This document shows, piece by piece, positions 2,736-64,000 of a stretch of DNA of 64,000 nucleotides (position 1 is its first letter; each line of letters opens with the position of its first letter). The notes beneath the pieces are model-generated. The model was not told the DNA's origin. It worked only from the letters and a program-made list of their open reading frames with translations, and searched no databases. This DNA comes from an uncultured Pseudomonadales bacterium (GTDB lineage: Bacteria; Patescibacteriota; Microgenomatia; UBA1400; PJMF01): NCBI GenBank assembly GCA_964447075.1, contig CAYUQY010000004.1, forward strand, positions 3,760 to 67,759, given 5' to 3'. The position numbers were made by a program, and so were the translations under genes.

Positions 2736-2753
2736 GGAATGTATTTAGTAAAA

Positions 2754-5574: not shown

Positions 5575-5582
5575 TATAGCAT

Positions 5583-41498: not shown

Positions 41499-42572
41499 GT
41501 GACAGCAACCACAGCTCGGCTCCATTTACTCGCAGTCTTCAAGGCTTTTTTTTGGCTATGTTTTTTTATCCTCTGCTTAGGAGTAATTATTTTGGGAGTT
41601 CTAGGAGTTTATTTCTGGGGCAAGCTTTCCGACTTCACTACTACAGCCAAGATTACTCCTGAGGCTCTCCATGAGCTTATCAAAACTGGTGTCGCCACCA
41701 AACCAAGACAGACTCATGATAGATCACTTTTCTTAGTCTTGGGCAGTGATGAGCTAGCTGGACGACCTGGGCTTCCCACGCTAACTGACAGCATACTCTT
41801 AGTCACTGTAGACGCTCAGCATGCCAAGATTTCTACCCTTAGCATCCCTCGAGATCTCTGGAGTAGTGAGTTCAAAACTCGCTTTAACTCTCTCTACGAG
41901 TATGGCAAAAAAAAATACCCTGATGAGCCTGAGAAGTTGGTCAGAGAGGCTCTCGAAAGTACTCTTCAACTCAAGATAGACTACACTCTTGTCATCACCA
42001 TCGAACAGCTTCAAGAGTTGATAGATGCTCTAGGAGGTGTGGATGTAGACGTCAAGGAATCTTTTGTCGATACTAGCTTCCCCAGAGCAGATGTCGACGT
42101 GACTGTAGAACGCAGTCCCACTAAACTCTTCGAAACCATTTCTTTCGCAAGTGGTGTCGAGCACATGAGTGGCGAGAGAGCCCTCAAGTACATGCGCAGT
42201 CGTCATGCAACTGGAACGCAAGGTAGTGATACAGCTAGAGCCGAGCGACAGCAGACTGTTTTTGCAGCCATACTTGCCCTTACAAAGCAACGCAGCTTCT
42301 TTTTTGATACTTCAAGACTAGGCGTCCTCTTTTCTTTTTACAAAAAAAACTTTGATCACTTCTTCCCCATGACTGAAGCTATCGGCTTAACTTACCAAGC
42401 CTTCCCCAAAATAATGCAACTTCAGTTTGCCTCACACGAACTAGCAGTATTTCCAGAAAATCCTGATGGCGTAATCACTCATCCTCTGCCTAATAAATAT
42501 GGCGGTCAGTGGGTCTGGGAGATTAAAGATAAAACTAAACTCCAGGAGTTCGTCAAGAAAGCGCTTTTTTGA
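41499..42572 (+). CDS. LytR-CpsA-Psr (LCP) family glycopolymer phosphotransferase
   Basis: An N-terminal TM anchor, then LFLVLGSDELAGRPGLPTLTDSILLVTVDAQHAKISTLSIPRDLW, the LCP core with its conserved R/D residues. The start codon is a GTG. Confidence 0.8.
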   Translation: MTATTARLHLLAVFKAFFWLCFFILCLGVIILGVLGVYFWGKLSDFTTTAKITPEALHELIKTGVATKPRQTHDRSLFLVLGSDELAGRPGLPTLTDSILLVTVDAQHAKISTLSIPRDLWSSEFKTRFNSLYEYGKKKYPDEPEKLVREALESTLQLKIDYTLVITIEQLQELIDALGGVDVDVKESFVDTSFPRADVDVTVERSPTKLFETISFASGVEHMSGERALKYMRSRHATGTQGSDTARAERQQTVFAAILALTKQRSFFFDTSRLGVLFSFYKKNFDHFFPMTEAIGLTYQAFPKIMQLQFASHELAVFPENPDGVITHPLPNKYGGQWVWEIKDKTKLQEFVKKALF

Positions 42573-47034: not shown

Positions 47035-47063
47035 AATTACCTTTGAGGTCGAGAGACTTAATA

Positions 47064-50000
47064 ATGAAAACCAAGTCACGTCTGCCCCCACAACCACTCT
47101 GGACAAAAGCTTTTTCTATGTTGAGGAAGTTTCAGAAAAAGTTACGACTGCTTACAGCAAAAAAACTACCACAACTGTCAAAGATATTTTCCTCGAGGCT
47201 AAAACTAATAGTCTTTGACTGGAAAAGATTTTTAGCCTCAGATCGCGTGAGTCTAGTTCAAGAGCTAGCACTTAACTCATTTAGGCAGCTAAAAACTTTT
47301 GCTATTTTCCTCAAAAAATATTTTCTCACTAGAGTAAGCCAGTTTGTCACTAACTTTAGAACGGCTTCTCTAAGAACAAAAGTCCGACTCTTAATTCTAC
47401 CAGTATTTTTGTGCCTCCTGGCTCTCTTTACCTGGCAGTCTAGCTCTCTTTTCACACCCCCAAAAGTTGTAGTCACATTTCCCGACAGTCAGTCTCGAGA
47501 TGTTTCCGTCGCCACCAAGGTTACTATCCAGTTTGATCGACCTATGCTGAGTCAGCACTTTGGTACTCCTCTCAAGTTTGGAAAAACTACTGCATCCGAG
47601 CTAACTCCAGTGCAGTTTTCTAGTGATGAAAAACCAGATTCAGTTTCCTGGCAAGGCAGCAACACTCTGAGCTTCACTCCTGCTTCCCCGCTTGAGAGAA
47701 ATACTGAGTACATCCTGAAGGTTGATCGTGGTTTGTTCTCAAGTTACTTTGTACCGCTGTGGCAGGCACAGACTGTCAAGTTTACGACAGAAGGCGATCC
47801 CAAAATTTTACTTGCCTCACCTCAAGGAGAAATTCTGGAGAAAAAACCAATCATCACGATTATGTTTGACCGCCCTATGGTCCCAGTCACTCTGGAGGGC
47901 AAAGAAGCTGATGACAGTAGTGACATGCTGAAGTCACCTCTGATCTTTATCCCCCTAGTTCCTGGCAGCGGCAGGTGGCTAGGTAGCTCTGCCTATGAGT
48001 GGACTCCAGATAAAAACCTAGCTCCAGCCACTACCTTTCAGTATGGGGTGGCCCCAGGTCTCAAAGCACAAGATGGCTCACAAATGCTCCAATCTCACAG
48101 CTTTAGTTTTGAAACAGAGAGCCCACACGTAGCTCTTCCAGTCTGTACTGGATCTCAGATGGAGTGTGAGTCATTTGAGTCCCAGAATGCAAACACTGTC
48201 ACTGTACCAGCTAGTGGTGAAAAGTATGCCAATATTGCTACTCCGATAGTAGTCAACCTTAACTTGCCGGTAACTCTTGAGTCAGCGCAAAGTAGCGTAA
48301 AACTCTTTGCCGAGAGAGGAGCTACCACTCTTCGAGATGTGCCAGCCACCATTCAAGTTCATAAAAAACAGATAATCCTGACCCCAAATCAACCTCTTGA
48401 GCGAGAACTCAGCTATAGGATTCAGATTTCCCCTGGCTTAAAAACACTCGGAGGGCCAAATCAATCGAAAGATAGTTACTCCTTCTACTTCAAAACCGCT
48501 CCTCTGCCCAAAGTCCTAAGCTCAGATCCCAGTGATGGTACCAAGAACTCTGACGAAACATCTCAACTAAAAGTGAAGTTCAACGCCCCGATGAAGCAGT
48601 CAAGCTTCAATGGACGACTCCACATTGATCCACTCCCTAAGGGCGATCTTGATCTCTACTTCTCCAACTACTCCGATAACAATACTTTGAGCATCAACAG
48701 CAGCTTCGAGAGATCAACCAGCTACAAAGTCACGCTAGACCCTGAAGTTGTTGATCAGCACGGCACTCCTCTTGGTAAATCATTTCAATTTTCTTTTGAG
48801 ACTGCCCCATATGATTCAACTGTAGTGATCGAGCCATCTGGCACCTACTTTGCCACTTTTAGTCAGAGTCTCGGTCCAAAATTTCTAGTCAGATCTAGGA
48901 ACACCAGTTCAGTATCTGTAGATGTATTTAAGATTGATAGGTCATCATTTTTGGAGTTGTATCGAGCTAGACAGAACTATCAAGAAAGTGAAGAGTTTCG
49001 ATCCTGGCAGTACTTTAGCACCCAGAAACTATCCAAACTTAATTCTTGGCAGATACCTATCGAGTCTCCGCTTAATGTCTCCAAAAAAATGGTTCTAGAA
49101 CTAAAAGATGATAAGGGTCAAAAACTACCAGCTGGCATGTATCTACTGGATCTCTCAGTTCCCAAAGGCAAGCGTCGTGATCGGACAGTGGTCATCATCT
49201 CTGACTCAGCTACAACCTTCAAGATCTCACCTCAAGATATGCTCATCTGGGCAGTTAATCAGTCAAACGGTCAGCCGATATCCAAGCAAAACATAGAGAT
49301 TACAGACAAAGTTGGTGAGTCACAGGGCTTAGGTCAGACCAACTCAGATGGAGTTTGGCAGCTGCACGACTCAATGCCGTACTCAAGACTACTTGAAAAA
49401 AACAAAGGCCAGCTAGTTTTGTTTGCCTTTCTCAAAGAAGGCGACAACGAAACAGTCGTTGCCTCTGACTGGTCAAGTGGCCTTGATGGCAGCGACTTTG
49501 GATTAAACAGCTCCTACTACCCCACAAAGACAAATGATAAACAAAATGAAGTTTATTTACTGATAGATCGACCGATCTATCGGCCTGGTCAAAAAGTCTA
49601 CTACAAAGGCGTAGTGCGTAGGCGTCAAGACAACAACTACACCCTTCCCACCCCTAACTCGCCACTTCAACTGACTGTCCATGATAGCCAGAACAAGGAA
49701 ATATACGCTACTACTGTCACGACATCTTCAGCTGGGAGTTTTGCAGGCGAGTTTAGCTTGGGACAGTCTGGTAAAGTCGGGGAGCACTCTCTAGTGGTCA
49801 AGATGGGAGAGACGCAAGCCTCTCAAGATTTCCAAGTCGAGATGTTTAGAACTCCAGAATTTGCAGTCAAAATACTTACTCCACAACAACTACTTATAGA
49901 TGAGCTTATCAAGCCCACTATCTCAGCCTCTTACTACTTTGGAGCTCCTCTTCCTAGAGCAAAGGTCAGCTGGAGCCTGACAGGGCAGGATGCTCCTTAC

Positions 50001-53000
50001 ACCTGGTCAAAAGACCGCAACTTCGAGTTTGGCGACGCTGACTCTGACTGGTACACTCCATGGTGGAGTCGGGAGAACACAAGCTACTTTGGTCAAGAGC
50101 TGGGCAAAGGTAAGGGTCTAACTGATAAATCTGGTGAGCTTAAACTCTCCTTGCCTATCTTGGAAAAAAAGAAAACCAATCGCCGTCTCAGACTTGAAGC
50201 TACAGTTGAAGACATCTCTCACCAGACAAGTATTGCCAACTCTCAAGAGTTTCTAGTTTACAACTCATCTCTAGATGTTGGACTTAAGCCCCTCACGTAC
50301 ACTTCAATAGCTGGAGCTCCAGCCGGAGCCGAAGTTGTGACCATAAACTCTGCTACTGGAGAAGAAAAACCAGCTCTTCCCATAAACATTCAAATCCTAC
50401 GCCGCAGCTGGAGCTCAATTCGTGAGAAAAATCCCAATGATGGCCAGCTCTACTGGATCAGCAAACCAATCGATAGTTTTATCGAATCTCAGCAACTGAT
50501 GAGTGATCAACACGGCAGAACAAAAGTAGTGTTTACCCCTCAGGAGGCTGGAACTTACAAAGTTCAGGCTGAAGTGAAAGATGATCAAGGCAGAACTGCT
50601 GTTTCTTCTACCTTTATCTGGGTAACTGGTGACAATGGTCACTTTAACCAAGCCAATAACGATCGAGTCCCACTTATTCCGGACAAGCAAGAGTATAAAG
50701 TAGGTGAAAAAGCTAAAATAGGAGTCGCAGCCAACGTACAATCTGGTATCGGCTTAGTCACCACAGAGAGAAACGGCGTTTATTCTTACCAAGTGCTGAC
50801 CAAGCCAGATCAGCTCAAGTCATTTTCTATCGATATCAATCAGGAGCTTGTACCCAACATCTTTGTCTCGGCTCTCTTTGTCCATCCCAGCACAGACTTT
50901 AGAGCTCCCCCTGACTTCAAGATGGGTATCACCGAGATTAGAGTTAGTGATCCTACCAAACATCTTAATGTAGAGTTTTTAAGTGAAAAGAAAGAGTATT
51001 TACCTGGTGAAGTCCTGAAGTCTAAAGTAAAAGTTACTGATCAGAACGGCGCACCGGTTCAAGCAGAGGTAGCCGTAGCGGTAGTGGACCAAGCAGTTTG
51101 GAGCTTAGCGAGAGTAGAGCTGCCAGATATTTTTGAGCTGTTCTACAGGCCGCAACAGTATGCTGTCAGCACAAGCCATAGCCTGACTCTCTCCATGGAT
51201 AGAATCAATGCCAACACCCTAGTTGGAGCTAAGGGTGGTTCCGGTGGTGGAGGCTGTGAGGGCGGAGACTGTGGAGCGACCACAATGAGAGACAACTTTG
51301 CAGACACTGCTTACTGGAATGCAAGCCTTGTCACCAACTCTCAAGGCATAGCTGAGTTTGAAGTTAAGCTTCCTGACAACTTAACCCAGTGGCGCCTGAG
51401 TGGTGTTGCAGCTACAGACTCAACAGCTGTAGGACAAGGAAGTAGCTCAGTAGTTGTCACTAAGCCTATCTTGATCACTCCCTACCTACCCAGATTCGTA
51501 AGCCTAGGCGATGAAGCCACACTTTCTGCCAGTGTTCACAATCTGACTTCTAGTGATCAAAACTTGAGTATTACTCTAGAACTAAATGGAGGCGAAGTAG
51601 TTGGGAACTCCTCTACATCACTTTTGCTTCCTGCACATACACAGAAAAAAATCGTCTGGCCTAGTAAAATTACAACCTTACAGACAAATCTTGAAGCTAA
51701 AATCACCGCCTCCAATCAACTTCAAGTTCTGGACTCTGTAAAAGTTGTGCTGCCGATGCAGCTCAACAATCAGCTCCAGCAAACTACCACCTCAGGCACA
51801 CTCTCTGGCAGGACTATCGAGCAAATTAAGCTACCTACTGGAGCAGTATCTGAGTTGAGTAAACTAAAACTAACCCTCTCAAGCTCTAGGGTTGGAGCAG
51901 CCATCTCCGGAGTTCAAAACTACATAGCTGAGTATCCTTTTTACTGTACTGAGCAAACAGTGGCGAAGCTCGTAATCATGCTGGGATTTCTGGAGTTGAA
52001 CAACCAGGGTGAAACTTATCAGCAGGGAGTTAGCATCTCCAACTCTCCTCAAGCTGTCGTGACAGACGCTATCGAGAGACTGGTGGCCACTCAAAATCCA
52101 GACGGCGGCTGGGGCTGGTGGGGCAGTAGTATGAGTAGTGACCCAGTCTTAAGCAGTATGGCTACCTCTGCCCTCTGGGAAGCCAAACAGTCGAGTCAAG
52201 TAGTACCTGATGTTACTCTTGATAAAGCCGCTACTTATCTGAGTTCCCTGCTCTCCATCTACTCAATTTCTAGTGATGAACAAGCCATTGTAGTCGAGGC
52301 TTTAACTAAGCTCAAAAAAGTTGATACTGCCACACTCAATAGGATTTTTGAGCACAGGCGTGAAGTTACTTTAACAAGTAGAGCATATCTCTTACTAGCT
52401 ATTCAGAGATCAAGTGGGGTCGATCAGATCGAGAAAACTCTACTTCAAGAGCTACTCTCTTTAGCTAAACTATCCAACACTTCTGTCCACTGGGAAGAGA
52501 ACTCAAAGAGCTCATGGAGGCTATTTTCTAACTCAGCTGGTCTAACTGCCCTCATGATAGAGGCATCTCTAAATGAAAGTCCTGACCATCCATACATAGC
52601 AAGAGCTATTTCCTGGCTAGAAAGTGCCAAGCACGATGGCCACTGGAGCTCAACTCACGATACTAGGTTGGTAGCTCATGCAGTTAGCCGAGTCGCAAAG
52701 CTAGAAAAAGCAGGTTTTTCACAACCATCGTGGCAAGCCAAGTTTCTAAACCAGAATGAGAGCGGACAGTTCGAACACAAAGACATCTTCAAAAATATTG
52801 ATCTCAACTTTTCTCTCAAAGATCTGAAAAGTGAGCAATCTCAAGAGCTATCTTTAGAAAAGAGCGGATGGTCCAATCTTTACTACAACTTAACTGCAGA
52901 TTTTGTCTTCCCTTTTGCAGCTTCAAAGCCCACCTCCAATGGCTTTACCCTCATTAGAGAACTTCAAACTAAAAGCGGGAAAAAATTAAGCAACACAGTG

Positions 53001-53387
53001 ACTACAGATGAGGAGATTTGGGTCAAGTTGACGCTTGTTTCGCCACAGGAGCGTCATCATGTAGTCATTGAGGACAAGCTACCTGCTGGCTTTGAGCCAG
53101 TCAACGAGAGCTTGGCCACTACTACTCTAGATGTATCACCACCTAAGCTAGACTCAGCCCTAGAAACGCCCGACAATCTAACTGAGCTGTTCGCAGACCA
53201 TCAAGAGATGCGCAGTGACAGAACTTTACTTTTTGTTGAAAATCTCACACCGGGGGTGTACTACTTCTCCTACAGAGTTCGACCAAGTATCAAGGGCAAG
53301 TTTCAGTATCCTCCAGCCGTAGTCTCAGAGATGTACTTTCCAGATGTCAAGGCTGCATCTGATGGGGGCTGGATCGAGATAAAGTAA
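47064..53387 (+). CDS. Bacterial alpha-2-macroglobulin family protein (thioester-containing), membrane-anchored
   Basis: About 2100 aa. The CTEQ thioester motif (YPFYCTEQTVAKL) is at nt 51944-51955. N-terminal tandem Ig-like repeats follow the pattern ...FDRPM... A Gly/Cys-rich segment GAKGGSGGGGCEGGDCGATT lies about 230 aa upstream of the thioester. A basic N-terminal tail precedes one TM (VRLLILPVFLCLLALFTW). The ORF-track start is a GTG at 47028 that overlaps the PBP stop. The ATG at 47064 with a GAGAGA SD 8 nt upstream is preferred. Confidence 0.85.
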   Translation: MKTKSRLPPQPLWTKAFSMLRKFQKKLRLLTAKKLPQLSKIFSSRLKLIVFDWKRFLASDRVSLVQELALNSFRQLKTFAIFLKKYFLTRVSQFVTNFRTASLRTKVRLLILPVFLCLLALFTWQSSSLFTPPKVVVTFPDSQSRDVSVATKVTIQFDRPMLSQHFGTPLKFGKTTASELTPVQFSSDEKPDSVSWQGSNTLSFTPASPLERNTEYILKVDRGLFSSYFVPLWQAQTVKFTTEGDPKILLASPQGEILEKKPIITIMFDRPMVPVTLEGKEADDSSDMLKSPLIFIPLVPGSGRWLGSSAYEWTPDKNLAPATTFQYGVAPGLKAQDGSQMLQSHSFSFETESPHVALPVCTGSQMECESFESQNANTVTVPASGEKYANIATPIVVNLNLPVTLESAQSSVKLFAERGATTLRDVPATIQVHKKQIILTPNQPLERELSYRIQISPGLKTLGGPNQSKDSYSFYFKTAPLPKVLSSDPSDGTKNSDETSQLKVKFNAPMKQSSFNGRLHIDPLPKGDLDLYFSNYSDNNTLSINSSFERSTSYKVTLDPEVVDQHGTPLGKSFQFSFETAPYDSTVVIEPSGTYFATFSQSLGPKFLVRSRNTSSVSVDVFKIDRSSFLELYRARQNYQESEEFRSWQYFSTQKLSKLNSWQIPIESPLNVSKKMVLELKDDKGQKLPAGMYLLDLSVPKGKRRDRTVVIISDSATTFKISPQDMLIWAVNQSNGQPISKQNIEITDKVGESQGLGQTNSDGVWQLHDSMPYSRLLEKNKGQLVLFAFLKEGDNETVVASDWSSGLDGSDFGLNSSYYPTKTNDKQNEVYLLIDRPIYRPGQKVYYKGVVRRRQDNNYTLPTPNSPLQLTVHDSQNKEIYATTVTTSSAGSFAGEFSLGQSGKVGEHSLVVKMGETQASQDFQVEMFRTPEFAVKILTPQQLLIDELIKPTISASYYFGAPLPRAKVSWSLTGQDAPYTWSKDRNFEFGDADSDWYTPWWSRENTSYFGQELGKGKGLTDKSGELKLSLPILEKKKTNRRLRLEATVEDISHQTSIANSQEFLVYNSSLDVGLKPLTYTSIAGAPAGAEVVTINSATGEEKPALPINIQILRRSWSSIREKNPNDGQLYWISKPIDSFIESQQLMSDQHGRTKVVFTPQEAGTYKVQAEVKDDQGRTAVSSTFIWVTGDNGHFNQANNDRVPLIPDKQEYKVGEKAKIGVAANVQSGIGLVTTERNGVYSYQVLTKPDQLKSFSIDINQELVPNIFVSALFVHPSTDFRAPPDFKMGITEIRVSDPTKHLNVEFLSEKKEYLPGEVLKSKVKVTDQNGAPVQAEVAVAVVDQAVWSLARVELPDIFELFYRPQQYAVSTSHSLTLSMDRINANTLVGAKGGSGGGGCEGGDCGATTMRDNFADTAYWNASLVTNSQGIAEFEVKLPDNLTQWRLSGVAATDSTAVGQGSSSVVVTKPILITPYLPRFVSLGDEATLSASVHNLTSSDQNLSITLELNGGEVVGNSSTSLLLPAHTQKKIVWPSKITTLQTNLEAKITASNQLQVLDSVKVVLPMQLNNQLQQTTTSGTLSGRTIEQIKLPTGAVSELSKLKLTLSSSRVGAAISGVQNYIAEYPFYCTEQTVAKLVIMLGFLELNNQGETYQQGVSISNSPQAVVTDAIERLVATQNPDGGWGWWGSSMSSDPVLSSMATSALWEAKQSSQVVPDVTLDKAATYLSSLLSIYSISSDEQAIVVEALTKLKKVDTATLNRIFEHRREVTLTSRAYLLLAIQRSSGVDQIEKTLLQELLSLAKLSNTSVHWEENSKSSWRLFSNSAGLTALMIEASLNESPDHPYIARAISWLESAKHDGHWSSTHDTRLVAHAVSRVAKLEKAGFSQPSWQAKFLNQNESGQFEHKDIFKNIDLNFSLKDLKSEQSQELSLEKSGWSNLYYNLTADFVFPFAASKPTSNGFTLIRELQTKSGKKLSNTVTTDEEIWVKLTLVSPQERHHVVIEDKLPAGFEPVNESLATTTLDVSPPKLDSALETPDNLTELFADHQEMRSDRTLLFVENLTPGVYYFSYRVRPSIKGKFQYPPAVVSEMYFPDVKAASDGGWIEIK

Positions 53388-53396
53388 TGTTAGAGC

Positions 53397-54062
53397 TTAC
53401 AGTACTGTTTTTTTTCTCCACTCTGCTATCAATTTATGATTGCCTTCCAACAAAACTCTAGGAACATCTAAGTCTCGAAAAGTTTCAGGTCTAGTGTACT
53501 GTACAGAGCCCAATGCACCTGGCTGACTGTGTGACTCAGCTTGGTTACTTAGCTCATTGCCCAGAACTCCTGGAACAAGGCGTGTGACAGCGTCAAGCAT
53601 AACCAGACCTGCGCTCTCTCCGCCGCTAAGAACATACTCACCTATGCATTTTTCCTCAGTAGTGAAGTGATCAGCCACGCGCTGATCTACGCCCTCGTAG
53701 TGACCGCAGATAATAACTAAGTCATTGAGCAAACTGTAACGCCATGCATCGCTCTGAGTGAAGTTACTTCCTCTAGCAGAGGTCAGGATGACCATAGGAG
53801 AGTTTAGCTGGAGAGACTCTAAAGCAAGTACAATCGGCTCTACTTTCATAACCATGCCCGGACCACCGCCAAAAGGACGATCATCCGTGACCCTTTGCTT
53901 ATCAACCGCAAACTGCCTAATATCTACTACATGATACTTAACTAGGTTTTTTTCGGCTGCTCTCTTGATCATCGACGTTCCCAAAGGCGACACAAAGAAC
54001 TCAGGAAAGAGCGTCAAGAGATGGATCGTCAAAGTAGGTGTCTGTGTTATACTTTTGGTCAT
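53397..54062 (-). CDS. trmD: tRNA (guanine37-N1)-methyltransferase
   Basis: LTIHLLTLFPEFF, RVTDDRPFGGGPGMVMKVEP and the C-terminal LLEGNHKLIAEWR are TrmD signatures. The ORF-track start (GTG at 54110) would overlap the divergent dehydrogenase gene. The ATG at 54062 is chosen by alignment to the conserved TrmD N-terminus. Confidence 0.8.
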   Translation of the reverse strand: MTKSITQTPTLTIHLLTLFPEFFVSPLGTSMIKRAAEKNLVKYHVVDIRQFAVDKQRVTDDRPFGGGPGMVMKVEPIVLALESLQLNSPMVILTSARGSNFTQSDAWRYSLLNDLVIICGHYEGVDQRVADHFTTEEKCIGEYVLSGGESAGLVMLDAVTRLVPGVLGNELSNQAESHSQPGALGSVQYTRPETFRDLDVPRVLLEGNHKLIAEWRKKTVL

Positions 54063-54087
54063 ACTCAAGATAGATATTGTACCTCTT

Positions 54088-55416
54088 ATGCACATCTGCG
54101 TCATCGGCACTGGTTTTGTGGGCGTAGTCAGCAGTGGAGTCTACGCTTCATTGGGTCACAAAGTAATAGGACTCGACATAGATCCCCACAAGATCGACCA
54201 GCTCAAACAGGGAACTGTGCCTTTTTACGAACCTGGACTAACAGAGCTTCTGGTCAAGCAGCAAGCCACTGGAAACCTAAGCTTTACGACCAGCTACAAA
54301 GAGGCTATTTCTTCAGCTGAAGTAATCATTATTGCTGTGGGCACACCATCAGCAGCAGATGGTCAAGCTGACTTGAGGTATATTTTTGCCTCCTGCCAAT
54401 CACTTGCCCCTTTCCTCCAACCAAAGGCTATCATAGCTATTAAGTCTACTGTTCCTCCAGGAACTTTAGCAAAAGTAAACAGCATCATTACTGGGTACTT
54501 TTCACAAAATCACTCTGAAAAAAAGCCTCCCCACTACTCCCTCGCCTCACTCCCAGAATTTCTTAAAGAAGGCACAGCTGTTGAAGACACAGTTCATCCA
54601 GATAGGGTGGTAATTGGTGCCAGCTCGAATGAGGTTTTTGAAGTCTTGAGCCAGCTACACCTACCACTCACTCCCAACATCGTAAAAATATCTCCAGAGT
54701 CAGCTCAGATGGCTAAGTACTCGGCGAACGCTTATCTAGCCACACGAATTACTTTTATCAATCAAATATCTGACCTGTGTCAAAAAAATGGAGCTGATGT
54801 CCAGGAAGTAATAGCTGCTATCTCTCCTGATAAAAGGATCGGTCCTCACTACTGGTACCCTGGACTTGGGTATGGTGGTTCCTGTTTTCCCAAAGATGTC
54901 AAAGAGCTAGCTGCATACTCTAGAAGTGTGGGTGAAGGTAACAATCTTTTCAACAAAATTAACGAGCTAAATGAGAACCGCATTTGGATGTTACTAGATG
55001 CCTTTGCTGATAAAATTGGCGGATGGGAAGGCAAAAATATCGCTTTACTTGGTCTATCCTTCAAACCCAACACCAACGATACGCGAGAAGCTCCTAGTAC
55101 CAAAATAATTCCTTACCTCATGTCACATAGCTGTAAGATTTTGGGTTATGATCCTAAAGCTGAGATTGTTCAAGAAAGTAACTCTGATAGTTCAGGATCA
55201 TTCAAGCAAGAGTCTTCGATCTTGAAGACTGTAAAAAATGCTGATGTAGTAATTGCTGTAGTTGAGTGGCCTGAGATAATTAAATGGGATTTTTCTGCAA
55301 CCAAAGAAACCAAAAAACAGTGCTTTATCGATGCTCGCAATCAATTTGACCGTAGTGCCATCACAAAGCTTGGCTATCACTACCTTGGTGTAGGAACCAC
55401 AAATCAGCATGACTAA
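54088..55416 (+). CDS. ugd: Nucleotide-sugar dehydrogenase (UDP-glucose/GDP-mannose dehydrogenase family; probable UDP-glucose 6-dehydrogenase)
   Basis: MHICVIGTGFVGVVSSG Rossmann motif, AVGTP, KSTVPPGT and the catalytic GYGGSCFPKD. The ORF-track N-terminal 41-aa extension is antisense to trmD and is rejected. Confidence 0.75.
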   Translation: MHICVIGTGFVGVVSSGVYASLGHKVIGLDIDPHKIDQLKQGTVPFYEPGLTELLVKQQATGNLSFTTSYKEAISSAEVIIIAVGTPSAADGQADLRYIFASCQSLAPFLQPKAIIAIKSTVPPGTLAKVNSIITGYFSQNHSEKKPPHYSLASLPEFLKEGTAVEDTVHPDRVVIGASSNEVFEVLSQLHLPLTPNIVKISPESAQMAKYSANAYLATRITFINQISDLCQKNGADVQEVIAAISPDKRIGPHYWYPGLGYGGSCFPKDVKELAAYSRSVGEGNNLFNKINELNENRIWMLLDAFADKIGGWEGKNIALLGLSFKPNTNDTREAPSTKIIPYLMSHSCKILGYDPKAEIVQESNSDSSGSFKQESSILKTVKNADVVIAVVEWPEIIKWDFSATKETKKQCFIDARNQFDRSAITKLGYHYLGVGTTNQHD

Positions 55417-55444: not shown

Positions 55445-56422
55445 ATGTCTAAAAAAATACTTATCACCGGTGGAACAGGCTTTGTGGGCTCACATCTTAT
55501 CGAGCTACTGTCAAAGGAAGAGCCTGGAGCAACACTCCACAGCACTACTTTTAAAGCAGTTGATAGCTATGTCTCAGCGAACTTCCCCGAAGTTACTCAA
55601 CACAGTCTAAACTTAACCGACAAGCAAGCTACATTTGAGCTTATCTCTACGGTGATGCCCGACGAGCTCTACCACTTAGCCTCAATCTCAGCTGTGGGCT
55701 CTAGTTTTGAAAATGTGCGTGATATCCTGCACAACAATCTAACTCTTCACCTCAATGTCCTAGAGGCTGTCAAAGAGTGTTCTCCAGATACAAAGATGCT
55801 GAGTGTTGGCTCAGCTGAGTGCTACGGTCAATCCAATCTAAAGTTCTTGACTCCTCTAGATGAAACAGCCCTCCCTCTGCCCACCAATCCCTACTCTATT
55901 TCAAAGCTCACCCAAGAGATGCTCAGTCTTTACTATGCTCGCTCTTACAAGCTAAACATCGTCTGTGCTCGACCCTTCAATCATGTTGGTGAGCGCCAAA
56001 CACCCAACTTTGCAGTCAGCGCTTTTGCCTCGCAGATAGCTGCCATTGAGCTTGGCTTGCAGTCACACCTAAGTGTAGGCAATCTAGAGACAGTTCGTGA
56101 CTTTTCTGATGTTAAAGACATAGTGAGAGGCTACTCCACTCTGATGTCTGTTGGTCAAGGCTCGCAAATTTATAATCTTGGAAGTGGTAAAGGCTACCGT
56201 ATTCAAGATATACTCAATAAGTTGATCAGCTTAGCCAGGGTTGAGATCAAAGTTGAGAGTGACCCAAAGCGTATGAGACCTAGTGACACCGCTTGGCTGT
56301 TAGCTGACATTGGTAAAATAAAGTCTTTGGGTTGGTCACCAAAGATTGAGATCATGAACACATTGGAGAGAACTCTGGAGTACTGGCGAGATCAGAAGTC
56401 GCTCTTGGTAGAAAAAAAATAG
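55445..56422 (+). CDS. rmd: GDP-4-dehydro-6-deoxy-D-mannose reductase (Rmd-like short-chain dehydrogenase)
   Basis: ILITGGTGFVGSHL, YSISK, ARPFNHVGERQ, VGNLETVRDFSDVKDI, YNLGSG and DPKRMRPSD closely parallel Pseudomonas Rmd as I recall it. It sits directly upstream of gmd. Confidence 0.65.
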   Translation: MSKKILITGGTGFVGSHLIELLSKEEPGATLHSTTFKAVDSYVSANFPEVTQHSLNLTDKQATFELISTVMPDELYHLASISAVGSSFENVRDILHNNLTLHLNVLEAVKECSPDTKMLSVGSAECYGQSNLKFLTPLDETALPLPTNPYSISKLTQEMLSLYYARSYKLNIVCARPFNHVGERQTPNFAVSAFASQIAAIELGLQSHLSVGNLETVRDFSDVKDIVRGYSTLMSVGQGSQIYNLGSGKGYRIQDILNKLISLARVEIKVESDPKRMRPSDTAWLLADIGKIKSLGWSPKIEIMNTLERTLEYWRDQKSLLVEKK

Positions 56423-56475: not shown

Positions 56476-57450
56476 ATGAAAAAAGCTTTCATATCCGGAA
56501 TCACAGGACAAGATGGTTCGTACCTTGCAGAGTTGCTACTAGAAAAAGGCTACAGTGTCTACGGCTTGACTAGGCGCACTAGCACCCAGAACTTTGAGCG
56601 CATCGCTGCCGTCAGACATCATGCCAATCTAGAGCTAGTTTCAGGCGACCTACTCGATCAACATTCCTTGACCATTGCTCTTAAAGATATTCAGCCTGAT
56701 GAGGTCTACAACTTGGCAGCTCAATCTTTCGTCAAAGCCAGCTGGGATCAGCCAGTCTTGACAGGAGAGTTTACGGCTCTAGGTGTGACAAGGATGCTTG
56801 AAGCTGTCAGATTTGCCTGTCCCAAAGCTAAGTTTTATCAAGCTAGCTCATCAGAAATGTTTGGCAAAGTCCAAGCTGTTCCCCAGACAGAAAGTACCCC
56901 TTTCTACCCTCGCTCTCCCTACGGTGTCGCCAAAGCCTACGGACACTGGATCACAGTTAACTATCGTGAGTCATTTGATATGTTTGCTGTCTCTGGTTTG
57001 CTGTTCAATCACGAGTCTCCTAGAAGAGGCCTTGAGTTTGTTACTCGCAAGATAGCTAACGCAGTAGCTAGAATCAAGCTAGGTAAACAAGAAAAAATTG
57101 AGCTAGGCAACCTTGGTGCCAAAAGAGACTGGGGATACGCTAAGGACTATGTCGAAGCCATGTGGCTAATGTTGCAACAAGCCAACCCTGAAGACTATGT
57201 GATTGCAACAGGTGAGACACACTCTGTAAGAGAGTTTCTAAAATCAGCTTGTGATGTGGTCGGCATCAAAGACTGGCAGAATATTTATCTTCACAATCCT
57301 AAGTACGATCGTCCAGCTGAAGTAGATCTCCTGATAGGTGATGCAAGCAAAGCTAAAAGAGAACTTGGTTGGCAGCCAACTGTTTCATTCGAAGAACTAG
57401 TTAAGATTATGGTCGAAGCAGAGTTAGAAAATGAAGGAAAAAACCCATGA
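56476..57450 (+). CDS. gmd: GDP-mannose 4,6-dehydratase
   Basis: [29 protein letters not shown] and [10 protein letters not shown] are Gmd signatures. Confidence 0.9.
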
Positions 57451-58604
57451 AGAAGGCTATAGTCATCATTCCAACCTACAACGAAAAAGAGAACATCGGA
57501 CCAACCCTCTCAGCTGTGAGCAAGGTATTTGAGCAGATAAAGTCATGGGAGATGCAGGTTTTGGTTGTAGACGACAGCTCTCCAGACGGAACCGGTCAGG
57601 TGGTAATAGATCTACAGAAACAGTACCCTTGGCTAGAGCTTCTCTCCAATCCCAAAAAATCTGGTTTAGGTGGAGCTTACCTTAAGGCCATGGAGCATGC
57701 CTTTGGCAAACTAGGAGCTGACATCGTGTTTGAGTTTGACGCTGATCTACAACATGACCCAAACAAAATTCCTGCCTTCTTGGAAAAAATTGATCAGGGA
57801 GCAGATATGGTTCTGGGCTCACGTTACATGAAGGGTGGAAGTATTCCTGCCTCTTGGGGAGTACACCGCAAATTTTTAAGTTTTTTTGGCAATCTATTGA
57901 TTAGAGCTCTCTTTCTAAGCCCTCACCTCAGTGACTGGACATCTGGTTATAGAGCTATTACAAGGAAAGTTTATGATGTAGCTCATCTTGGTCTTCAGTC
58001 TGAGAGATTCACTGGCTACGCATTTCAGATCGGTTTTCTCTACAAGGCCTTCAGAGCTGGATTTAAGATTGAAATGGTGCCATACCACTTTGCTGATCGA
58101 ACAGTTGGTATCTCCAAAATGAGCTCTGAGTATGCCAAGAACACCATAATTTTCATCTTTAAAATTCGTATTTTGGAGATTTTGGCTAGCAGAAAATTCA
58201 AATTTTTGGTCGTAGGGTCGATAGGAGCTGGAGTTCAGCTAAGCTTCCTGACTTTATTTAGATCACTCATGCTCTTTGAGCTAGCCTATATCTTGAGTAT
58301 TGAGATGGCAGTGATCTCCAACTTCTTGCTCAGCAATACTTGGACCTTTGCAGATCGAAAGCTTCCCTTGTCAGCTTGGCCAGCCAAGTTTTTGACTTTC
58401 AATCTCTCTTCTGCCGGATCAATTATCATTCAAACGATTATCGGCATAACTGGTAAAAATACCATTGGACTGATAGCCCTTTTTACTCTGCCGATACTCA
58501 ACATTTTGGTAGACACTGGGCATGTTTATGCTATCGTAGGCATCCTAGTTGGTCTGGTCTGGAACTTCTACGCTTACTCCAAGTTTGTCTGGAAAAAATC
58601 GTGA
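57447..58604 (+). CDS. Polyprenol-phosphate sugar synthase (DPM1/GtrB-like GT2) fused to a C-terminal GtrA-like 4-TM domain
   Basis: [41 protein letters not shown] and GSRY form the GT2 part. The C-terminal 130 aa have 4 TM helices with [18 protein letters not shown]...[11 protein letters not shown], GtrA-family-like. A GAAGGA SD lies upstream. Confidence 0.8.
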
Positions 58605-58658
58605 TCCAATTTATCTTATTTTCTTACTACAGGCCGTTACTCTAGATTTAAGCAAAGC

Positions 58659-60227
58659 ATGAAGTACTCTCCAAGCTTGACAATTTCCAACATCAAGAGC
58701 TTTGTCGTGAGACGTACACTCTACGACTGGTTGCTACTAGCTTGCCTCAGCCTTGCTAGTTTTTTAAGAGTTTGGAATCTACCCAACACCATCCAGTTTC
58801 TCAGTGACCAAGGGAGAGACGCCATCGTAGTCATGAGATTTATACGTTTTTTCGACCCAATGCTGATCGGTCCTGTCACTAGTAACGGCAACATGTATCT
58901 AGGTCCGGCTTACTACTACCTCATGGCTCCATTCTTGGCTCTTACTTTTCCATCTCCTATTGGTCCGGCTTACGGGGTGGCTATTTTTGGAGTCTTGACG
59001 GTCTTTTTGATTTACTATTTAGGTAGAGAAATGGTAGGTAAATCCGCAGCAGTCTTGGCTGCTTTTATGGCTAGCATTTCTGGAGTTCTAGTAGAGTATT
59101 CACGTTTTAGCTGGAATCCAAACTTGGCCCCTCTGGTCATGATGTTGTTGATTTGGTCACTCTTTCGATTTTGGACCAGAAGTAGATGGTACTTTGTCTT
59201 GAGCATACTTTGGTTCTCACTTCTCATTCAGCTCCACTACGTAACTTTACTAACTGCTCCAGTCATCGGTTTTGTTTGGCTTGCCTGTTTGATAGAACAG
59301 ACTCGTTTGAAGAAAGAAAAAGTGCACAGGGCTTGGTCGACACTCAAACTATTTTTGCCTTCCACCTTGAGTGGTATTTCTGTGTTCATACTCTCACTCC
59401 TCCCACAAATTATTTTTGAGTTTCTGCATAATTTTATTAATACCTCCTCATTTTTAAGCTTCATAGGAAGAGAGGACGGATCTTTTACCAGAGTAGGAAC
59501 TAGCATCAAGTTCATGAGAGTTTTGGGGGAGCTCCACGGCCGGAGTATGCAGATATTATTTGAGATGTTCATCGGCACCTCACGTCAGCTAAACACTTGG
59601 CTAGTAGTACTGGTAATTTTAGGTAGTATCTTTCTCTGGAGATCACTCAAAAATCAGAGTGACAAAAAAGCTTTTAGCATCACTGTTCTTTCTCTAGTCA
59701 CTGCTGCAGTAGGTTTGGCATTTTATCGTGGTAGTGTTTTTCACCACTACGTTCTCTTTACGATTCCTGTCACTTTCTTGCTCTTTGGTCAGATAATTAT
59801 CTTTTTATGGAAGAAGTTCCTTGTCAAGATACTTCTGCTTGCGTTCCTAAGTTACTTCATCCTCTGGAACATATCTACTGTCCCACTTAAGTCTCAAGGC
59901 TGGAAGTTGCGCGACATAGAGCGTGTTGCCAACAGTGTTTTAGCAAGAGTTAAACCAGGAGAAAAGTACAATATTGTCCTACTTTCTGAGATAAAAGACT
60001 TTGAAGGGACTAACTACCGCTACTTTTTAGAAGCAAGTGAAAAACCACCTGTCTCAATTGAGAAAAGAGGTGAAACTGAAACTCTCTTTATCATCAATGA
60101 GGATGGGAAACTCAAAGACACGCCCAATGACTCCCCCATCTATGAGATAGTAGTTTTCCCCAATCACAATCCAAGTGAAGTTTACAGTGACTCAGGGGGT
60201 CCAAGAATTACAGTCTTAAGAAAGTAA
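58659..60227 (+). CDS. Uncharacterised polytopic membrane protein, subfamily C (D-x-G-R-D-A / YYYLMAPF motifs); putative Gtr-type GT-C transferase
   Basis: 522 aa. QFLSDQGRDAIVVMRFIRFFDPMLIGPVTSNGNMYLGPAYYYLMAPF parallels ORF 27054. It lies between the two GtrB-like GT2 genes. Confidence 0.45.
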   Translation: MKYSPSLTISNIKSFVVRRTLYDWLLLACLSLASFLRVWNLPNTIQFLSDQGRDAIVVMRFIRFFDPMLIGPVTSNGNMYLGPAYYYLMAPFLALTFPSPIGPAYGVAIFGVLTVFLIYYLGREMVGKSAAVLAAFMASISGVLVEYSRFSWNPNLAPLVMMLLIWSLFRFWTRSRWYFVLSILWFSLLIQLHYVTLLTAPVIGFVWLACLIEQTRLKKEKVHRAWSTLKLFLPSTLSGISVFILSLLPQIIFEFLHNFINTSSFLSFIGREDGSFTRVGTSIKFMRVLGELHGRSMQILFEMFIGTSRQLNTWLVVLVILGSIFLWRSLKNQSDKKAFSITVLSLVTAAVGLAFYRGSVFHHYVLFTIPVTFLLFGQIIIFLWKKFLVKILLLAFLSYFILWNISTVPLKSQGWKLRDIERVANSVLARVKPGEKYNIVLLSEIKDFEGTNYRYFLEASEKPPVSIEKRGETETLFIINEDGKLKDTPNDSPIYEIVVFPNHNPSEVYSDSGGPRITVLRK

Positions 60228-60306
60228 TCTAAAGATATAGCTTTCGCAAATAGGATTGACTACATGAAGCTAGTTAAAACTCTGACACATTGCTTTGGGA
60301 GAATTT

Positions 60307-61071
60307 ATGTTAAGTAATAAAATCTTTTTATCAGTTGTTGTCCCTTCATTTAATGAAAAGGCCAACATCGAGCGTCACTGCCTAGAGCTTGTTTCTGAGT
60401 ACTTATCCAAGCAGTCGTACTCTTGGGAGGTAATCTTGAGCGACGATGGCTCAACAGACGGAACTTGGGAGGATCTGGAGAATTTTGCCAAGACTCATCC
60501 TGGATTTAGAGCTCTTGCTAACACCCACGCTGGCAAAGGACCAACTGTTCAATCTGGTATGTTGGCAGCATCTGGGGAGTGGAAGCTTTTTACAGACTTT
60601 GATCAATCTACACCACTAAGTGAGATTGAGAAGCTTTTTCCTTTTAGCGATAGGTTTGAGGTTGTAATTGGGTCACGTGAGATTGCGGGCGCGTCCCGCG
60701 CCCGCGAACCCATTCATCGCCACCTCATGGGTAGGGTCTGGAACTTGACCGTCCAGGCATTAGCTGTGCCAGGAATTCTAGACACTCAATGCGGCTTCAA
60801 GCTCTTCAAAGGAACAGTCTCAGATCAACTTTTTAAAAACTTAGTTGTCTACTCACGCTCCAACTCTACTTCCAATGCTTTCACTGGAGCCTTCGATGTA
60901 GAGCTACTTTTTTTAGCCAGAAAACTTGGTTACAAAATTAAAGAGGTTCCCATCAGCTGGAAACACTACACCACTGCTCGCGTTAGTCCCGTTCGCGACT
61001 CACTTCGAATGTTGCGTGATATTGTTCGAATTCTCTGGGCAAACTCTAGAGGACTCTATAAGATTAGCTAG
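60307..61071 (+). CDS. Polyprenol-phosphate sugar synthase-like family 2 glycosyltransferase (DPM1/GtrB-like)
   Basis: LSVVVPSFNEKANIERHCLELV, VILSDDGSTDGT, DFDQSTP and GSRE. The start is moved to the ATG at 60307, which has a GGGAG SD 6 nt upstream. The ORF-track start is 60295. Confidence 0.8.
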   Translation: MLSNKIFLSVVVPSFNEKANIERHCLELVSEYLSKQSYSWEVILSDDGSTDGTWEDLENFAKTHPGFRALANTHAGKGPTVQSGMLAASGEWKLFTDFDQSTPLSEIEKLFPFSDRFEVVIGSREIAGASRAREPIHRHLMGRVWNLTVQALAVPGILDTQCGFKLFKGTVSDQLFKNLVVYSRSNSTSNAFTGAFDVELLFLARKLGYKIKEVPISWKHYTTARVSPVRDSLRMLRDIVRILWANSRGLYKIS

Positions 61072-61178
61072 AGGCTTCTGTTCATCAGAAGTTGTCATTG
61101 ATTGTTTTAAGCATTCGTCAACTTTAATTAAGCACCTAACAGGTCTAGTTTATAAAATTTAACTTTTCCTGATGCTCT

Positions 61179-64000
61179 ATGTTTAACAAATCACTCTTCT
61201 ATCTTTTCGTCGGATTATACTTGGTTGCTTTTCTTTTCTATGCCCTTTTTTCCTTTTCCCTAACCGACCCAAACTTGAGCTTCACGTCTTGGTTGCCATA
61301 CTGGAAGTTTCAGTGGTGGATGTGGGCCACTTTCTTTCACAACTCATATCTTCTATCTTCCAGTTATCTCAGCTTAGTTACTTTCATATTTGCTTGCTAC
61401 TTAGCCATTTACTATCTACTTCTCAAATCTACAGATAATTTTGGTCTGAAAAGAATAATCATCGGAGTCACGGCTTTGATACTAGGGATGCTAGTTATTT
61501 CCAACAATGCTTTATCTCATGACATGTTCAACTATATTTTTAATGCCAAAATGGTGATGGTGTATCAGGCGAATCCTCATCTTCAAACAGCCCAAGAGTT
61601 TGCAGCTAGTGATACCTGGGTGAGGTTTATGCACAACACTCACACTCCAGCCCCATATGGTTTTGGTTGGACAGTCTGGTCATTGATTCCTTTCATACTT
61701 GGTTTACAAAAGTTCACCATTACTTGGCTACTCTTCAAACTCTGGAGTTTGTGTAGCTGGTTTTTTATGATCTGGTCAATAAATTTCTTGTCGAAAAAAC
61801 TCTCAGGAAAGGAGATAAGCTTGGCATCCTGGTTTTTAATTTTTGCCAATCCTCTTATTTTGATTGAGATACTTGGAAATGGTCACAATGATCTCTGGAT
61901 GATGGCTCCTGCTGTGTGGTCGCTAGGGATACTCTTAACAGCTTCTAAGAATGGAAAAGTATCACTCAAAAACATCTTTTTTTCTGGTGTCTTACTCTTT
62001 CTCTCCATAAGTACCAAGCTAGCTTCTCTAACATTACTTCCCATTTGGCTCATGGTCACTGGAGTAGTTGTAGCTCGGGTTTATTTGAGTAAAAATTCTC
62101 TTGTTCCTAAGCTCTGGATTAAGCTTCAGCCTCATGTGCCATTTTTCTGTTCACTACTTCTTTTTGGACCTCTCTTCACTGCTCAGTCTCAACAGTTTTT
62201 ACCCTGGTACTTAAGCTGGGTATTAATCTGGATTCCAGTTACTTTTGGTCAAAATTGGTGGAAAAGATCATTAATTTTTCTGAGTTTTTTGAGCTTGCTA
62301 CGTTACTATCCTTTCTTGGCAGTGGGTGAGTACACACCAGCTGTAATTTTGCAACAAAAAATGATCACCTGGGTGCCATTTGGAGTCTGGTTGTGCTTAG
62401 AGGGTCTTGTTCTCGCCCTAAATTTTACCAAAATCAATCTTCTACTTTCTGGTCAAATCAAAAAATTGCGATTCATTCTGCGTTTATGGCCATTTGTTTT
62501 GCTGATCTTGGTGTATCTCTTGTTACACTTTTATCGTCTAGATTTCTTTCCTGTTTTTGCTGATGAATCAATTTATATTCGCTGGGCTCAATTAATCATT
62601 GATGATCCTGGTAGGTACGCTTTTTTTGCCCTCAATGATGGCAAGACGCCACTTTTTATGTGGCTACTCGTACCCTTGCAGTTCTTATTTAGCAATCAAC
62701 TGGTAGCTGGTAGAGTTTTGGCAGTTCTGGTGGGTTTACTCCAGCTGTGGGTCGTACAAGCTACGATCAAGTCTTGTGGTGGTCGTAAAAGTACTCAGCT
62801 TCTTGGCATGACTATGGTTTGCTTTTTGCCCTTTTGGTTTTTTCACCATCGTATGGCACTTATTGATGGTTTATTGACTTTATGTTTATCTGGAGCAACT
62901 TATTTTCTAGTTAGATTCCACCAGAGCGTCCAGTCTAGTCACTCTCAACATCTTAGACTTAAGCTGATAGCTTTGTCCGGAGCTTGTTTCGGTCTTGCTC
63001 TTTTAACCAAACTGCCAGCTCTTTTCTTTTCACCAGTATTTTTCTTGTCCAATTTGTTCTTTTACCCAGTTAGTTCTAGAAGTCTCAGCGTCTGGAAAAG
63101 TAATTTTTGGTACTGTTTACTTGGAGCTGGGTTGGGGCTCTTGATGTTTACCTTGCTAGCACTTCACCCTGCTTTTGGTCAGCTTTTCAGAAGAAGTGGT
63201 GACTTTACTTTTACCATCGTTGAGTCTCTCAAGGGTGGGTGGTTGCACTCCCTAACCCAGAGTAGTTATGCCCTGGCTGGTGTGATCAACTACATGAGCT
63301 TGCCCGTGGTTATTCTGTCCTTGTGGGGTGTGTTTATGGATAAAACTAGACGCTACAGCGGGTTTTTTATCCTTTGTGCTCTCTGCTACCTGCTTCCTTT
63401 CGCGCTGCTTGGCAAGATAGTCTTTATTCGTTACTTACTTCCTCTTAGTTTTTTTCTAACTGTGAGCGCGGCTCTGACTTTTCAGCGACTCTATGAGCAG
63501 TGGTTTGTAGATGTGTCTCAGCTGTCCAAAAAAGTTTTAGCTGCTATTTTTTTGACCACACTCCTCAGTGGAGCTGCTCAAACTTCTAGTAGTTTTATCA
63601 TTCCTTTACTCACAAGTTATGACTCAGTGCCTTTTAGCCCTTCCGACCGAACTCAGTATCTGGAAGACTGGTCTTCAGGGCATGGTATTTTTGAAACAGT
63701 GGAGTACATACGAAAACAAGCACTTGATCACACCATTTCTATTGCCACTGAGGGCAGCTTCGGGACTCTACCAGATGGAATTCTCCTGCTTTTACATCGT
63801 AGTGATCTAAGGAACATTTCTGTCTCAGGCATAGGTCAGCCAATTGCAGGACTTTCTCCAGAGTTTCTGGCTCACTCCAAAAAATTTGATCAAACAATTC
63901 TAGTTGTTAACTCACATCGTTTACTGATGTCGTTAGGCGACAGTCCAAAAATCATAGAACAGTGTCGACCCCACAACGCTCCATGCTTCCAGGTTTTCGA
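61179..64000 (+). CDS. Very large polytopic membrane protein, partial (>940 aa); apparent tandem of two GT-C-like modules (DUF2029/GT87-like N-module plus ArnT/PMT-like C-module)
   Basis: Hand translation from ATG 61179 in frame 0 to the window end found no in-frame stop. Frame alignment was checked at 62100, 63000 and 63960. The second half restarts with TM-loop-DE architecture (LRFILRLWPFVLLILVYLLLHFYRLDFFPVFADESIYIRWAQL). The ORF track missed it because no stop lies inside the window. Confidence 0.55.
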   Translation, partial: MFNKSLFYLFVGLYLVAFLFYALFSFSLTDPNLSFTSWLPYWKFQWWMWATFFHNSYLLSSSYLSLVTFIFACYLAIYYLLLKSTDNFGLKRIIIGVTALILGMLVISNNALSHDMFNYIFNAKMVMVYQANPHLQTAQEFAASDTWVRFMHNTHTPAPYGFGWTVWSLIPFILGLQKFTITWLLFKLWSLCSWFFMIWSINFLSKKLSGKEISLASWFLIFANPLILIEILGNGHNDLWMMAPAVWSLGILLTASKNGKVSLKNIFFSGVLLFLSISTKLASLTLLPIWLMVTGVVVARVYLSKNSLVPKLWIKLQPHVPFFCSLLLFGPLFTAQSQQFLPWYLSWVLIWIPVTFGQNWWKRSLIFLSFLSLLRYYPFLAVGEYTPAVILQQKMITWVPFGVWLCLEGLVLALNFTKINLLLSGQIKKLRFILRLWPFVLLILVYLLLHFYRLDFFPVFADESIYIRWAQLIIDDPGRYAFFALNDGKTPLFMWLLVPLQFLFSNQLVAGRVLAVLVGLLQLWVVQATIKSCGGRKSTQLLGMTMVCFLPFWFFHHRMALIDGLLTLCLSGATYFLVRFHQSVQSSHSQHLRLKLIALSGACFGLALLTKLPALFFSPVFFLSNLFFYPVSSRSLSVWKSNFWYCLLGAGLGLLMFTLLALHPAFGQLFRRSGDFTFTIVESLKGGWLHSLTQSSYALAGVINYMSLPVVILSLWGVFMDKTRRYSGFFILCALCYLLPFALLGKIVFIRYLLPLSFFLTVSAALTFQRLYEQWFVDVSQLSKKVLAAIFLTTLLSGAAQTSSSFIIPLLTSYDSVPFSPSDRTQYLEDWSSGHGIFETVEYIRKQALDHTISIATEGSFGTLPDGILLLLHRSDLRNISVSGIGQPIAGLSPEFLAHSKKFDQTILVVNSHRLLMSLGDSPKIIEQCRPHNAPCFQVF

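Follow-up and report, generated by a model that had tools for sequence, protein, structure and literature searches.

A single open reading frame joining MptA/MptB-like and GT39/ArnT-like GT-C modules in a Patescibacteria-type glycan gene cluster

The stretch of DNA analysed here (the window, 64,000 nucleotides (nt) of contig CAYUQY010000004.1 from an uncultured bacterium) ends inside a plus-strand open reading frame (ORF), 61179-64000, that encodes two different glycosyltransferase modules of the GT-C type in one polypeptide. Translation of the window gave 940 codons free of stops. No earlier start than the ATG at 61179 is available, the frame being closed by a TGA at 61170, and the alignments of homologues to the fused protein begin at residue 3. 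A first-pass annotation of the window had described a single long ORF that runs past the window end and is absent from the supplied ORF list, and each of these statements proved correct; the list omits ORFs running off the end of the source, and merely 12 codons are missing from the window. The downstream sequence that this annotation had sought to finish the ORF was supplied by a Logan contig (L001; SRR8670877, 9169 nt), which corresponds to window positions 57465-64000 over 6536 nt with 0 mismatches. This contig adds 12 codons and then a stop, giving a full protein of 952 amino acids (aa) whose last residues before the stop are ...CFQVFDITKLLQESRVE. The C-terminus of the fused protein, ...DITKLLQESRVE, matches the ending of free-standing homologues such as P0002 (DITRLVQQAQVE). 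The 3' end of the fused ORF overlaps with a convergent response-regulator gene. The protein representative P0001 is the same fused protein, identical from residue 16. The features of the ORF are listed below, and the peptides quoted in the annotation are all present (aa 113-124, 234-244 and 461-493, in the order listed).

61179-64000, plus strand: fused ORF, 940 of 952 codons; the final 12 codons and the stop lie just past the window.
61179-62420, plus strand: N module (aa 1-414), GT-C assigned to the MptA_B family, with 12 predicted transmembrane (TM) helices and both termini predicted to be cytoplasmic.
61515-61550, plus strand: SHDMFNYIFNAK, first part of the N module's large outer loop; D115, a candidate for the catalytic Asp, and N118 are invariant.
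61878-61910, plus strand: NGHNDLWMMAP, N-module outer loop in which H236, N237 and D238 are invariant.
62016-62018, plus strand: K280, invariant, in an outer turn between two TM helices of the N module.
62421-62471, plus strand: fusion linker NFTKINLLLSGQIKKLR (aa 415-431), Lys/Arg-rich and probably cytoplasmic.
62472-63614, plus strand: membrane domain of the C module (aa 432-812), GT39/PMT_2-type GT-C.
62559-62657, plus strand: ADESIYIRWAQLIIDDPGRYAFFALNDGKTPLF, first outer loop of the C module, with the invariant DE pair (D462, E463), D487 and K489 (columns D30, E31, D55 and K57 of alignment A2).
63615-64000, plus strand: C-terminal alpha/beta domain by secondary structure (aa 813-940, continuing to 952), predicted to be extracytoplasmic.

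The N module is a multi-pass membrane protein whose three-dimensional fold matches solved GT-C enzymes. Its link to these enzymes is a fold comparison only; a profile of the N half found no match among PDB sequences even at E <= 10. The family name rests on the precomputed Pfam annotation, which assigns PF26314.1 (MptA_B_family) to P0001 without a 'weak' mark and to all 120 homologues listed. The Pfam scan run here returned nothing for the N half, and the local models are older (PF02366.24 versus.25) and so probably lack PF26314. The GT87 model PF09594 did not match the N module. NCBIfam gave nothing meaningful on either half; for the N half no glycosyltransferase family was found at E <= 1, nor an equivalog-level match to MptA/MptB. 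The N family has 41 invariant residues, including D115, E230, H236, N237, D238, K280 and R149, and the window protein keeps all invariant residues of both the N and the C families. D115 is invariant across the 68 aligned sequences of the N family. K280 corresponds in the alignment to the invariant Lys in the LTKLPAL motif of the C module and may contact the donor phosphate.

The TM segments of the N module were taken from AlphaFold helices. In the 12-TM fit, 14 Lys and Arg residues fall in inside loops (63 residues) compared to 5 in outside loops (131 residues), and all 41 invariant residues lie on the outer side, 30 of them in outer loops and 11 in the outer halves of TM helices. The N module is therefore modelled with 12 TM helices and with its N- and C-terminus both in the cytoplasm. 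Given this predicted topology, which agrees with the positive-inside rule, D115 sits in an outer loop of 73 residues.

When the C half was scanned alone, it matched PMT_2 (PF13231) at 38.1 bits (cut-off 26.1) and PMT (PF02366) at 33.7 bits (cut-off 22.7); a Pfam scan of the whole 940-aa protein gave zero matches. The fold of the C module matches solved PMT or ArnT structures, and no NCBIfam match to ArnT (GT83) was found for the fused protein. The annotation had placed a DE motif in the first loop of the second module, and this is where it lies, within FADES (aa 460-464) directly after TM1; both residues are invariant in 64 sequences. No Pfam match to a MIR domain was found, and the C-terminal alpha/beta domain stands in its place. 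Conserved motifs in this domain are EWSSGHG, TEGxFGTLPDG, NSHR and CRP..APC. Comparison of the N- and C-family profiles with hhalign gave a weak but collinear match (35% probability, E 4e-4, 225 columns). Judged by their sequence profiles, the N and C modules are two different GT-C families. A tandem duplication was considered and ruled out by the hhalign probability of only 35%. The claim that one frame carries two different GT-C modules is thus upheld by family profiles, folds and the open junction.

The junction itself was placed at the Lys/Arg-rich linker, around which N-type homologues end and C-type homologues start. This differs from the annotation, in which the junction was put at about 62560. 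The boundary lies about 100 nt upstream, at 62421-62471, and position 62560 corresponds to the DE motif of the second module. A first GT-C module is present as described; its length is about 415-430 aa, not the 470 or so that had been proposed. A stop or frame break was looked for across 62340-62600, which includes the 62500-62600 interval where the annotation had suggested that one might have been missed, and none was found. Within the linker, a run of six A residues (A6, 62460-62465) precedes an in-frame TTG (62466-62468). The possibility that translation restarts where the C gene formerly began found no support: no ATG or GTG is present there, and the only candidate is the TTG at L430, which has no Shine-Dalgarno-like sequence. 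A combined MAFFT alignment (A3) of the fusion and single-module homologues placed C-type proteins on the N half at 20-32% identity over 1456 columns and was not used.

Free-standing N proteins carry a Lys-rich tail and free-standing C proteins a Lys/Arg-rich leader. Because the N module would end in the cytoplasm and the C leader is also Lys/Arg-rich, joining the two would leave the orientation of the C module unchanged. A fused frame is thus combined with a predicted topology that is compatible with it, the N module ending and the C module starting in the cytoplasm. The short linker would pass directly to the first TM helix of the C module, with the two catalytic faces pointing outward.

The N-half alignment was scanned against one genome per GTDB species, which returned 80 loci, nearly all from Pacebacteria or other Patescibacteria metagenome-assembled genomes (MAGs). 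Adding three further loci (L002, L003 and L006) gave 83. A C-type gene lies directly downstream on the same strand as a separate ORF in 63 of the 83 loci. It is on the same strand but further away in 5, on the opposite strand in 5 and fused in 1 (L002), and no C-type gene was found in the remaining 9, at 4 of which the downstream sequence is shorter than 2 kb. One locus counted as further away (L019) is actually adjacent by its ORF bounds. None of the 80 GTDB species loci is fused. At the 63 loci with adjacent genes, a median of 62 nt separates the N stop from the position equivalent to fusion residue 446, and the N stop and C start therefore abut or overlap. In 45 of these 63 loci, N and C are in different frames. 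An exhaustive HMMER search of 1.84 billion representatives returned 1993 relatives, and of the 150 highest-ranking ones P0001 alone spans both halves, the rest being 320-590 aa long. A word-indexed search with aa 300-600 returned 120 single-module proteins with coverage of at most 57%; it missed both known fusions and was not used as a census. In L003 the N and C modules are separate genes within the same operon. Intervening opposite-strand ORFs without a Pfam family are present in L006 (3439-4215, minus strand, 258 aa) and L003 (9552-10013, minus strand, 153 aa). Many of the related MAGs (loci L007-L086) bear the title 'uncultured Pseudomonadales bacterium', although they have the same Patescibacteria-type operon and fall among Pacebacteria records; these titles look like taxonomic mis-assignments in the source records.

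The annotation had proposed looking for the same fusion in related genomes, and one other was found. This second fusion, P0003 on L002 (an ENA assembly), has 42-43% identity to the window fusion. The nearest relatives of L002 (L037, L032, L016 and L057, about 70% identity) are unfused, and the window ranks only 56th-59th for L002. L002 lacks the N tail, the stop and the spacer of about 17 nt that are found in its relatives. Each of the two fused loci has much closer unfused relatives, and by this comparison of sequences the window and L002 fusions are independent. One ancestral fusion shared with L002 was ruled out on the same grounds. The residues 'KINL', common to both junctions, match the C-gene leader in the relatives of L002. 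The N module of L002 has a frameshift at a G-run at about 7940-7960, before the D-loop, on a contig with 4.4x coverage, and is split into a 168-aa ORF and the 716-aa P0003. This frameshift may be an error or a real truncation; if real, L002 would encode an intact GT39-like module joined to the truncated remainder of an N module that has no D-loop. The annotation had called the tandem arrangement unusual. By frequency it is rare, but it simply joins a conserved, abutting pair and has precedent in the literature. The fusion is a rare but evolutionarily simple joining of a conserved gene pair.

The fused ORF is the last gene of a co-directional cluster, whose other members are as follows.

53965-55416, plus strand: UDP-glucose 6-dehydrogenase.
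55445-56422, plus strand: short-chain dehydrogenase/reductase (SDR) family epimerase/reductase.
56476-57450, plus strand: GDP-mannose 4,6-dehydratase (TIGR01472, 441 bits).
57447-58604, plus strand: GT2 fused to a GtrA/DPMS TM domain, 385 aa (PF00535 and PF04138), Dol-P-Man-synthase-like.
58659-60227, plus strand: separate PMT_2-type GT-C of the same operon, 522 aa.
60295-61071, plus strand: GT2 of 258 aa (PF00535), directly upstream of the fused ORF; candidate polyprenyl-phosphate-sugar synthase for the fused pair.

The best solved relative of both GT2 proteins is the Pyrococcus furiosus dolichol phosphate mannose (Dol-P-Man) synthase 5mlz, followed by ArnC and GtrB. The match to 5mlz is 4.3e-38 for the 385-aa GT2, covering almost the whole length, and 6.8e-12 for the 258-aa GT2. 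Matches of the two to ArnC (1e-13 and 1e-6) are far below the cut-off and poorer than those to Dol-P-Man synthase. PgfS is the top NCBIfam match for both and is likewise far below the cut-off. The gene order is identical in L002 and L003, and the short contig L006 shows the GT2, N and C part only. A polyprenyl-phosphate-sugar synthase, a GtrA-type flippase and a GT-C transferase make up the known three-component systems of extracytoplasmic glycosylation, and here the synthase, a GtrA-type domain and three GT-C modules are encoded in one cluster. The listed TTG start of the UDP-glucose dehydrogenase overlaps a minus-strand ORF of 237 aa (53397-54110) by about 145 nt; its true start is probably further downstream because the Pfam match begins only at residue 42.

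Most scanned ORFs of the 64-kb window are cell-envelope glycan genes. At least four PMT_2-type GT-C genes are present in addition to the fused ORF (990-2735, 14473-16077, 20567-22312 and the operon gene at 58659-60227), as well as two YfhO/PTPS_related membrane proteins (17906-19735 and 39471-41279), a Wzx-type flippase (37802-39433) and an LCP protein (41499-42572). The window also holds GT1/GT4 and GT2 genes, acyltransferase_3, rml-type genes and a class A penicillin-binding protein gene, after which lies a plus-strand ORF of 2119 aa (47028-53387). Seven minus-strand ORFs of 505-636 aa have no Pfam match (10696-12417, 16091-17881, 22353-24191, 24124-25863, 27054-28571, 28580-30490 and 30487-32169). 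The C-module profile weakly matches two of these, 28580-30490 (2e-11) and 16091-17881 (2e-8), which may be further divergent GT-C proteins. No other MptA_B-like copies were found in the window, and a tRNA scan of the window found none. The G+C content is 32-36% at positions 1-6000 compared to 40-46% elsewhere; genes for a PMT_2 GT-C, a methyltransferase and a GT2 lie in this part, which may have been acquired horizontally or be a variable section of the glycan island.

The architecture of a GT39 enzyme combined with a GT87-like protein already has precedent. Mycobacterial Pmt (GT39) co-purifies, and is predicted to form a heterodimer, with the GT87-like ML2687c/MSMEG6899/Rv0051, which lacks catalytic residues, and the authors of that July 2026 preprint compare the pair to yeast Pmt1-Pmt2 (bioRxiv 10.64898/2026.07.15.738315). 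The same preprint describes a Paenibacillus GT39 translationally fused to a GT87-family enzyme (UniProt V9WAU2), read as reflecting Pmt GT-C dimers (bioRxiv 10.64898/2026.07.15.738315). Like the window protein, V9WAU2 is described as one polypeptide with a GT39-type and a GT87-like GT-C. However, it belongs to Firmicutes rather than Patescibacteria, within which the fusion seen here arose separately, and the N module here is assigned to the Pfam MptA_B_family by precomputed annotation and is unmatched by PF09594. The mycobacterial Pmt complex is similar in that a GT39 enzyme is physically associated with a GT87-like GT-C, as seen by pull-down in Mycobacterium smegmatis. It differs in consisting of separate polypeptides, with a partner devoid of catalytic residues and extra beta-propeller and DivIVA-like subunits; in the window protein the partner keeps the full invariant outer-face set and the GT39-like module carries a C-terminal domain of its own. 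In yeast Pmt1-Pmt2 (PDB 6P25/6P2R) both protomers are GT39 enzymes with MIR domains and are unfused, whereas no MIR domain was detected here.

MptA and MptB of Corynebacterineae belong to the Pfam family to which precomputed annotation assigns the N module (PF26314). They are GT-C alpha(1->6)-mannosyltransferases that depend on polyprenyl-phosphate-mannose and have conserved Asp/Glu residues in outer loops (PMC2440535). MptB has 14-15 TM helices compared to about 12 in the N module. Phosphatidylinositol mannoside/lipomannan acceptors are not known outside Actinobacteria. The Dol-P-Man-synthase-like genes in the operon make polyprenyl-phosphate-mannose a candidate donor for the N module. ArnT (GT83, PDB 5F15/5EZM) differs from the fused protein, in which no ArnT NCBIfam match was seen. 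The streptococcal Pgf and GtrB/PgtC2 systems resemble the present one in having an operon with a GT-A polyprenyl-phosphate-sugar synthase and two GT-Cs acting outside the membrane (PMC12041528). PgfM1 and PgfM2, however, are unfused YfhO-type GT-Cs, and the likeness is one of system layout, not orthology. What sets the present case apart from the published ones is the phylum, the assignment of the N module to MptA_B, a partner whose active-site residues appear intact, the very broad conservation of the adjacent pair in Patescibacteria and the two independent fusions.

We consider it probable that the ORF is a genuine fusion of an operon pair, tethering an MptA/MptB-family and a GT39/ArnT-like GT-C with an outward-facing C-terminal domain. 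In the mechanism proposed, the two upstream Dol-P-Man-synthase-like GT2s would load a hexose onto polyprenyl phosphate at the cytoplasmic face, the lipid-linked sugar would be flipped to the outer face, and both tethered modules would then transfer it to one shared acceptor of the cell envelope. The ArnT/PMT-like module would most likely put the first sugar on a protein or other non-sugar acceptor, and the MptA/B-, ALG3- and PimE-like module would most likely add sugar to sugar; these roles are suggested because the closest characterised relatives act in this way (PMC2440535; database descriptions). The fusion would thereby make covalent a hetero-pair like yeast Pmt1-Pmt2 or mycobacterial Pmt with its GT87-like partner. 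Conserved adjacency and the published complexes suggest that the two modules may contact each other. Donor sugar, acceptor, sequence of action and physical pairing of the modules are all inferred in this scheme. That both modules are active, forming a two-site 'assembly line' in which the GT39/ArnT-like site would place the first sugar on an envelope protein or lipid and the MptA/B-like site would lengthen the chain, is a tentative extension that we regard as possible but somewhat doubtful.

Several observations weigh against a genuine, cooperating pair. The A6 run, where a 1-nt indel would separate the two genes, stands directly before the in-frame TTG, which could start the C module. The sole confirming contig, L001, is 100% identical to the window and may share its read set or sample, and is therefore not fully independent. 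The open frame across the junction is confirmed at the level of the assembled sequence. In the closest relative, L006 (N 55% and C 66% identity), the opposite-strand 258-aa gene lies between N and C. The operon also makes UDP-glucuronic acid and a GDP-6-deoxyhexose, so mannose is only one donor candidate. Finally, the mycobacterial GT87-like partner is catalytically dead, and double catalysis is thus not a given.

This last point leads to the alternative that survives best, namely that the fusion is real and only its GT39-like module is catalytic, the MptA_B-like module shaping or recruiting the acceptor in the manner of yeast Pmt2 or ML2687c. We judge this unlikely. Such a role has been proposed for the mycobacterial GT87-like partner (bioRxiv 10.64898/2026.07.15.738315), and the L002 frameshift, if real, leaves a truncated, non-catalytic N module. 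That frameshift, however, falls in a G-run on a low-coverage contig and may be an error, and the 41 invariant outer-face residues of the N family resemble an active GT-C site that is intact in the window protein.

Alternatively, the two modules could serve different acceptors, for example a lipoglycan and proteins, and have been fused through their shared donor and operon without any cooperation. In Actinobacteria, MptA/MptB (lipomannan) and Pmt (proteins) do share polyprenyl-phosphate-mannose and act on different acceptors (PMC2440535). Nevertheless, the tight and widely conserved adjacency with abutting stop and start, together with two independent fusions of the pair, is the usual signature of cooperating proteins, and direct association of Pmt with its GT87-like partner was shown in M. 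smegmatis (bioRxiv 10.64898/2026.07.15.738315), which makes this alternative distinctly improbable. An artefactual or accidental merger of two genes by a 1-nt indel in the A6 run (sequencing, assembly or very recent mutation) could be imagined from the 63 of 83 relatives with separate genes, 45 in different frames, but has very little likelihood: the two assemblies are identical base for base across 6.5 kb, A5 or A7 would by our reading carry the N frame 16-27 codons into the C gene where relatives' junctions are tight, the position of the L006 C-gene start is CTT here, neither ATG nor GTG, the TTG has no Shine-Dalgarno-like sequence upstream, and a fusion of this kind recurs in L002, which comes from an independent dataset.

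The fused protein is not a new enzyme class, and the gain from fusion is probably modest, consisting of fixed stoichiometry and co-localisation. The significance of a genuine fusion lies in the pair. Fusion of genes that are separate elsewhere is classic evidence of joint function, and the present case provides such Rosetta-stone evidence for GT-C hetero-pairs. A pair that is adjacent in about 60 species and fused twice supports, in a distant phylum, the recent proposal that GT39-type O-glycosyltransferases generally act with a second GT-C. As a natural single-chain construct, the fused protein could also ease structural and biochemical work on the pair, and it draws attention to an envelope-glycosylation operon that is conserved in uncultivated Patescibacteria. 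If both modules are indeed active, the Pmt/GT87-like hetero-pair would be ancient and originally doubly catalytic, with mycobacteria keeping a degenerate version, and the conserved operon of 8 genes would represent a previously undescribed pathway for an O-glycan or lipoglycan in Pacebacteria-type Patescibacteria.

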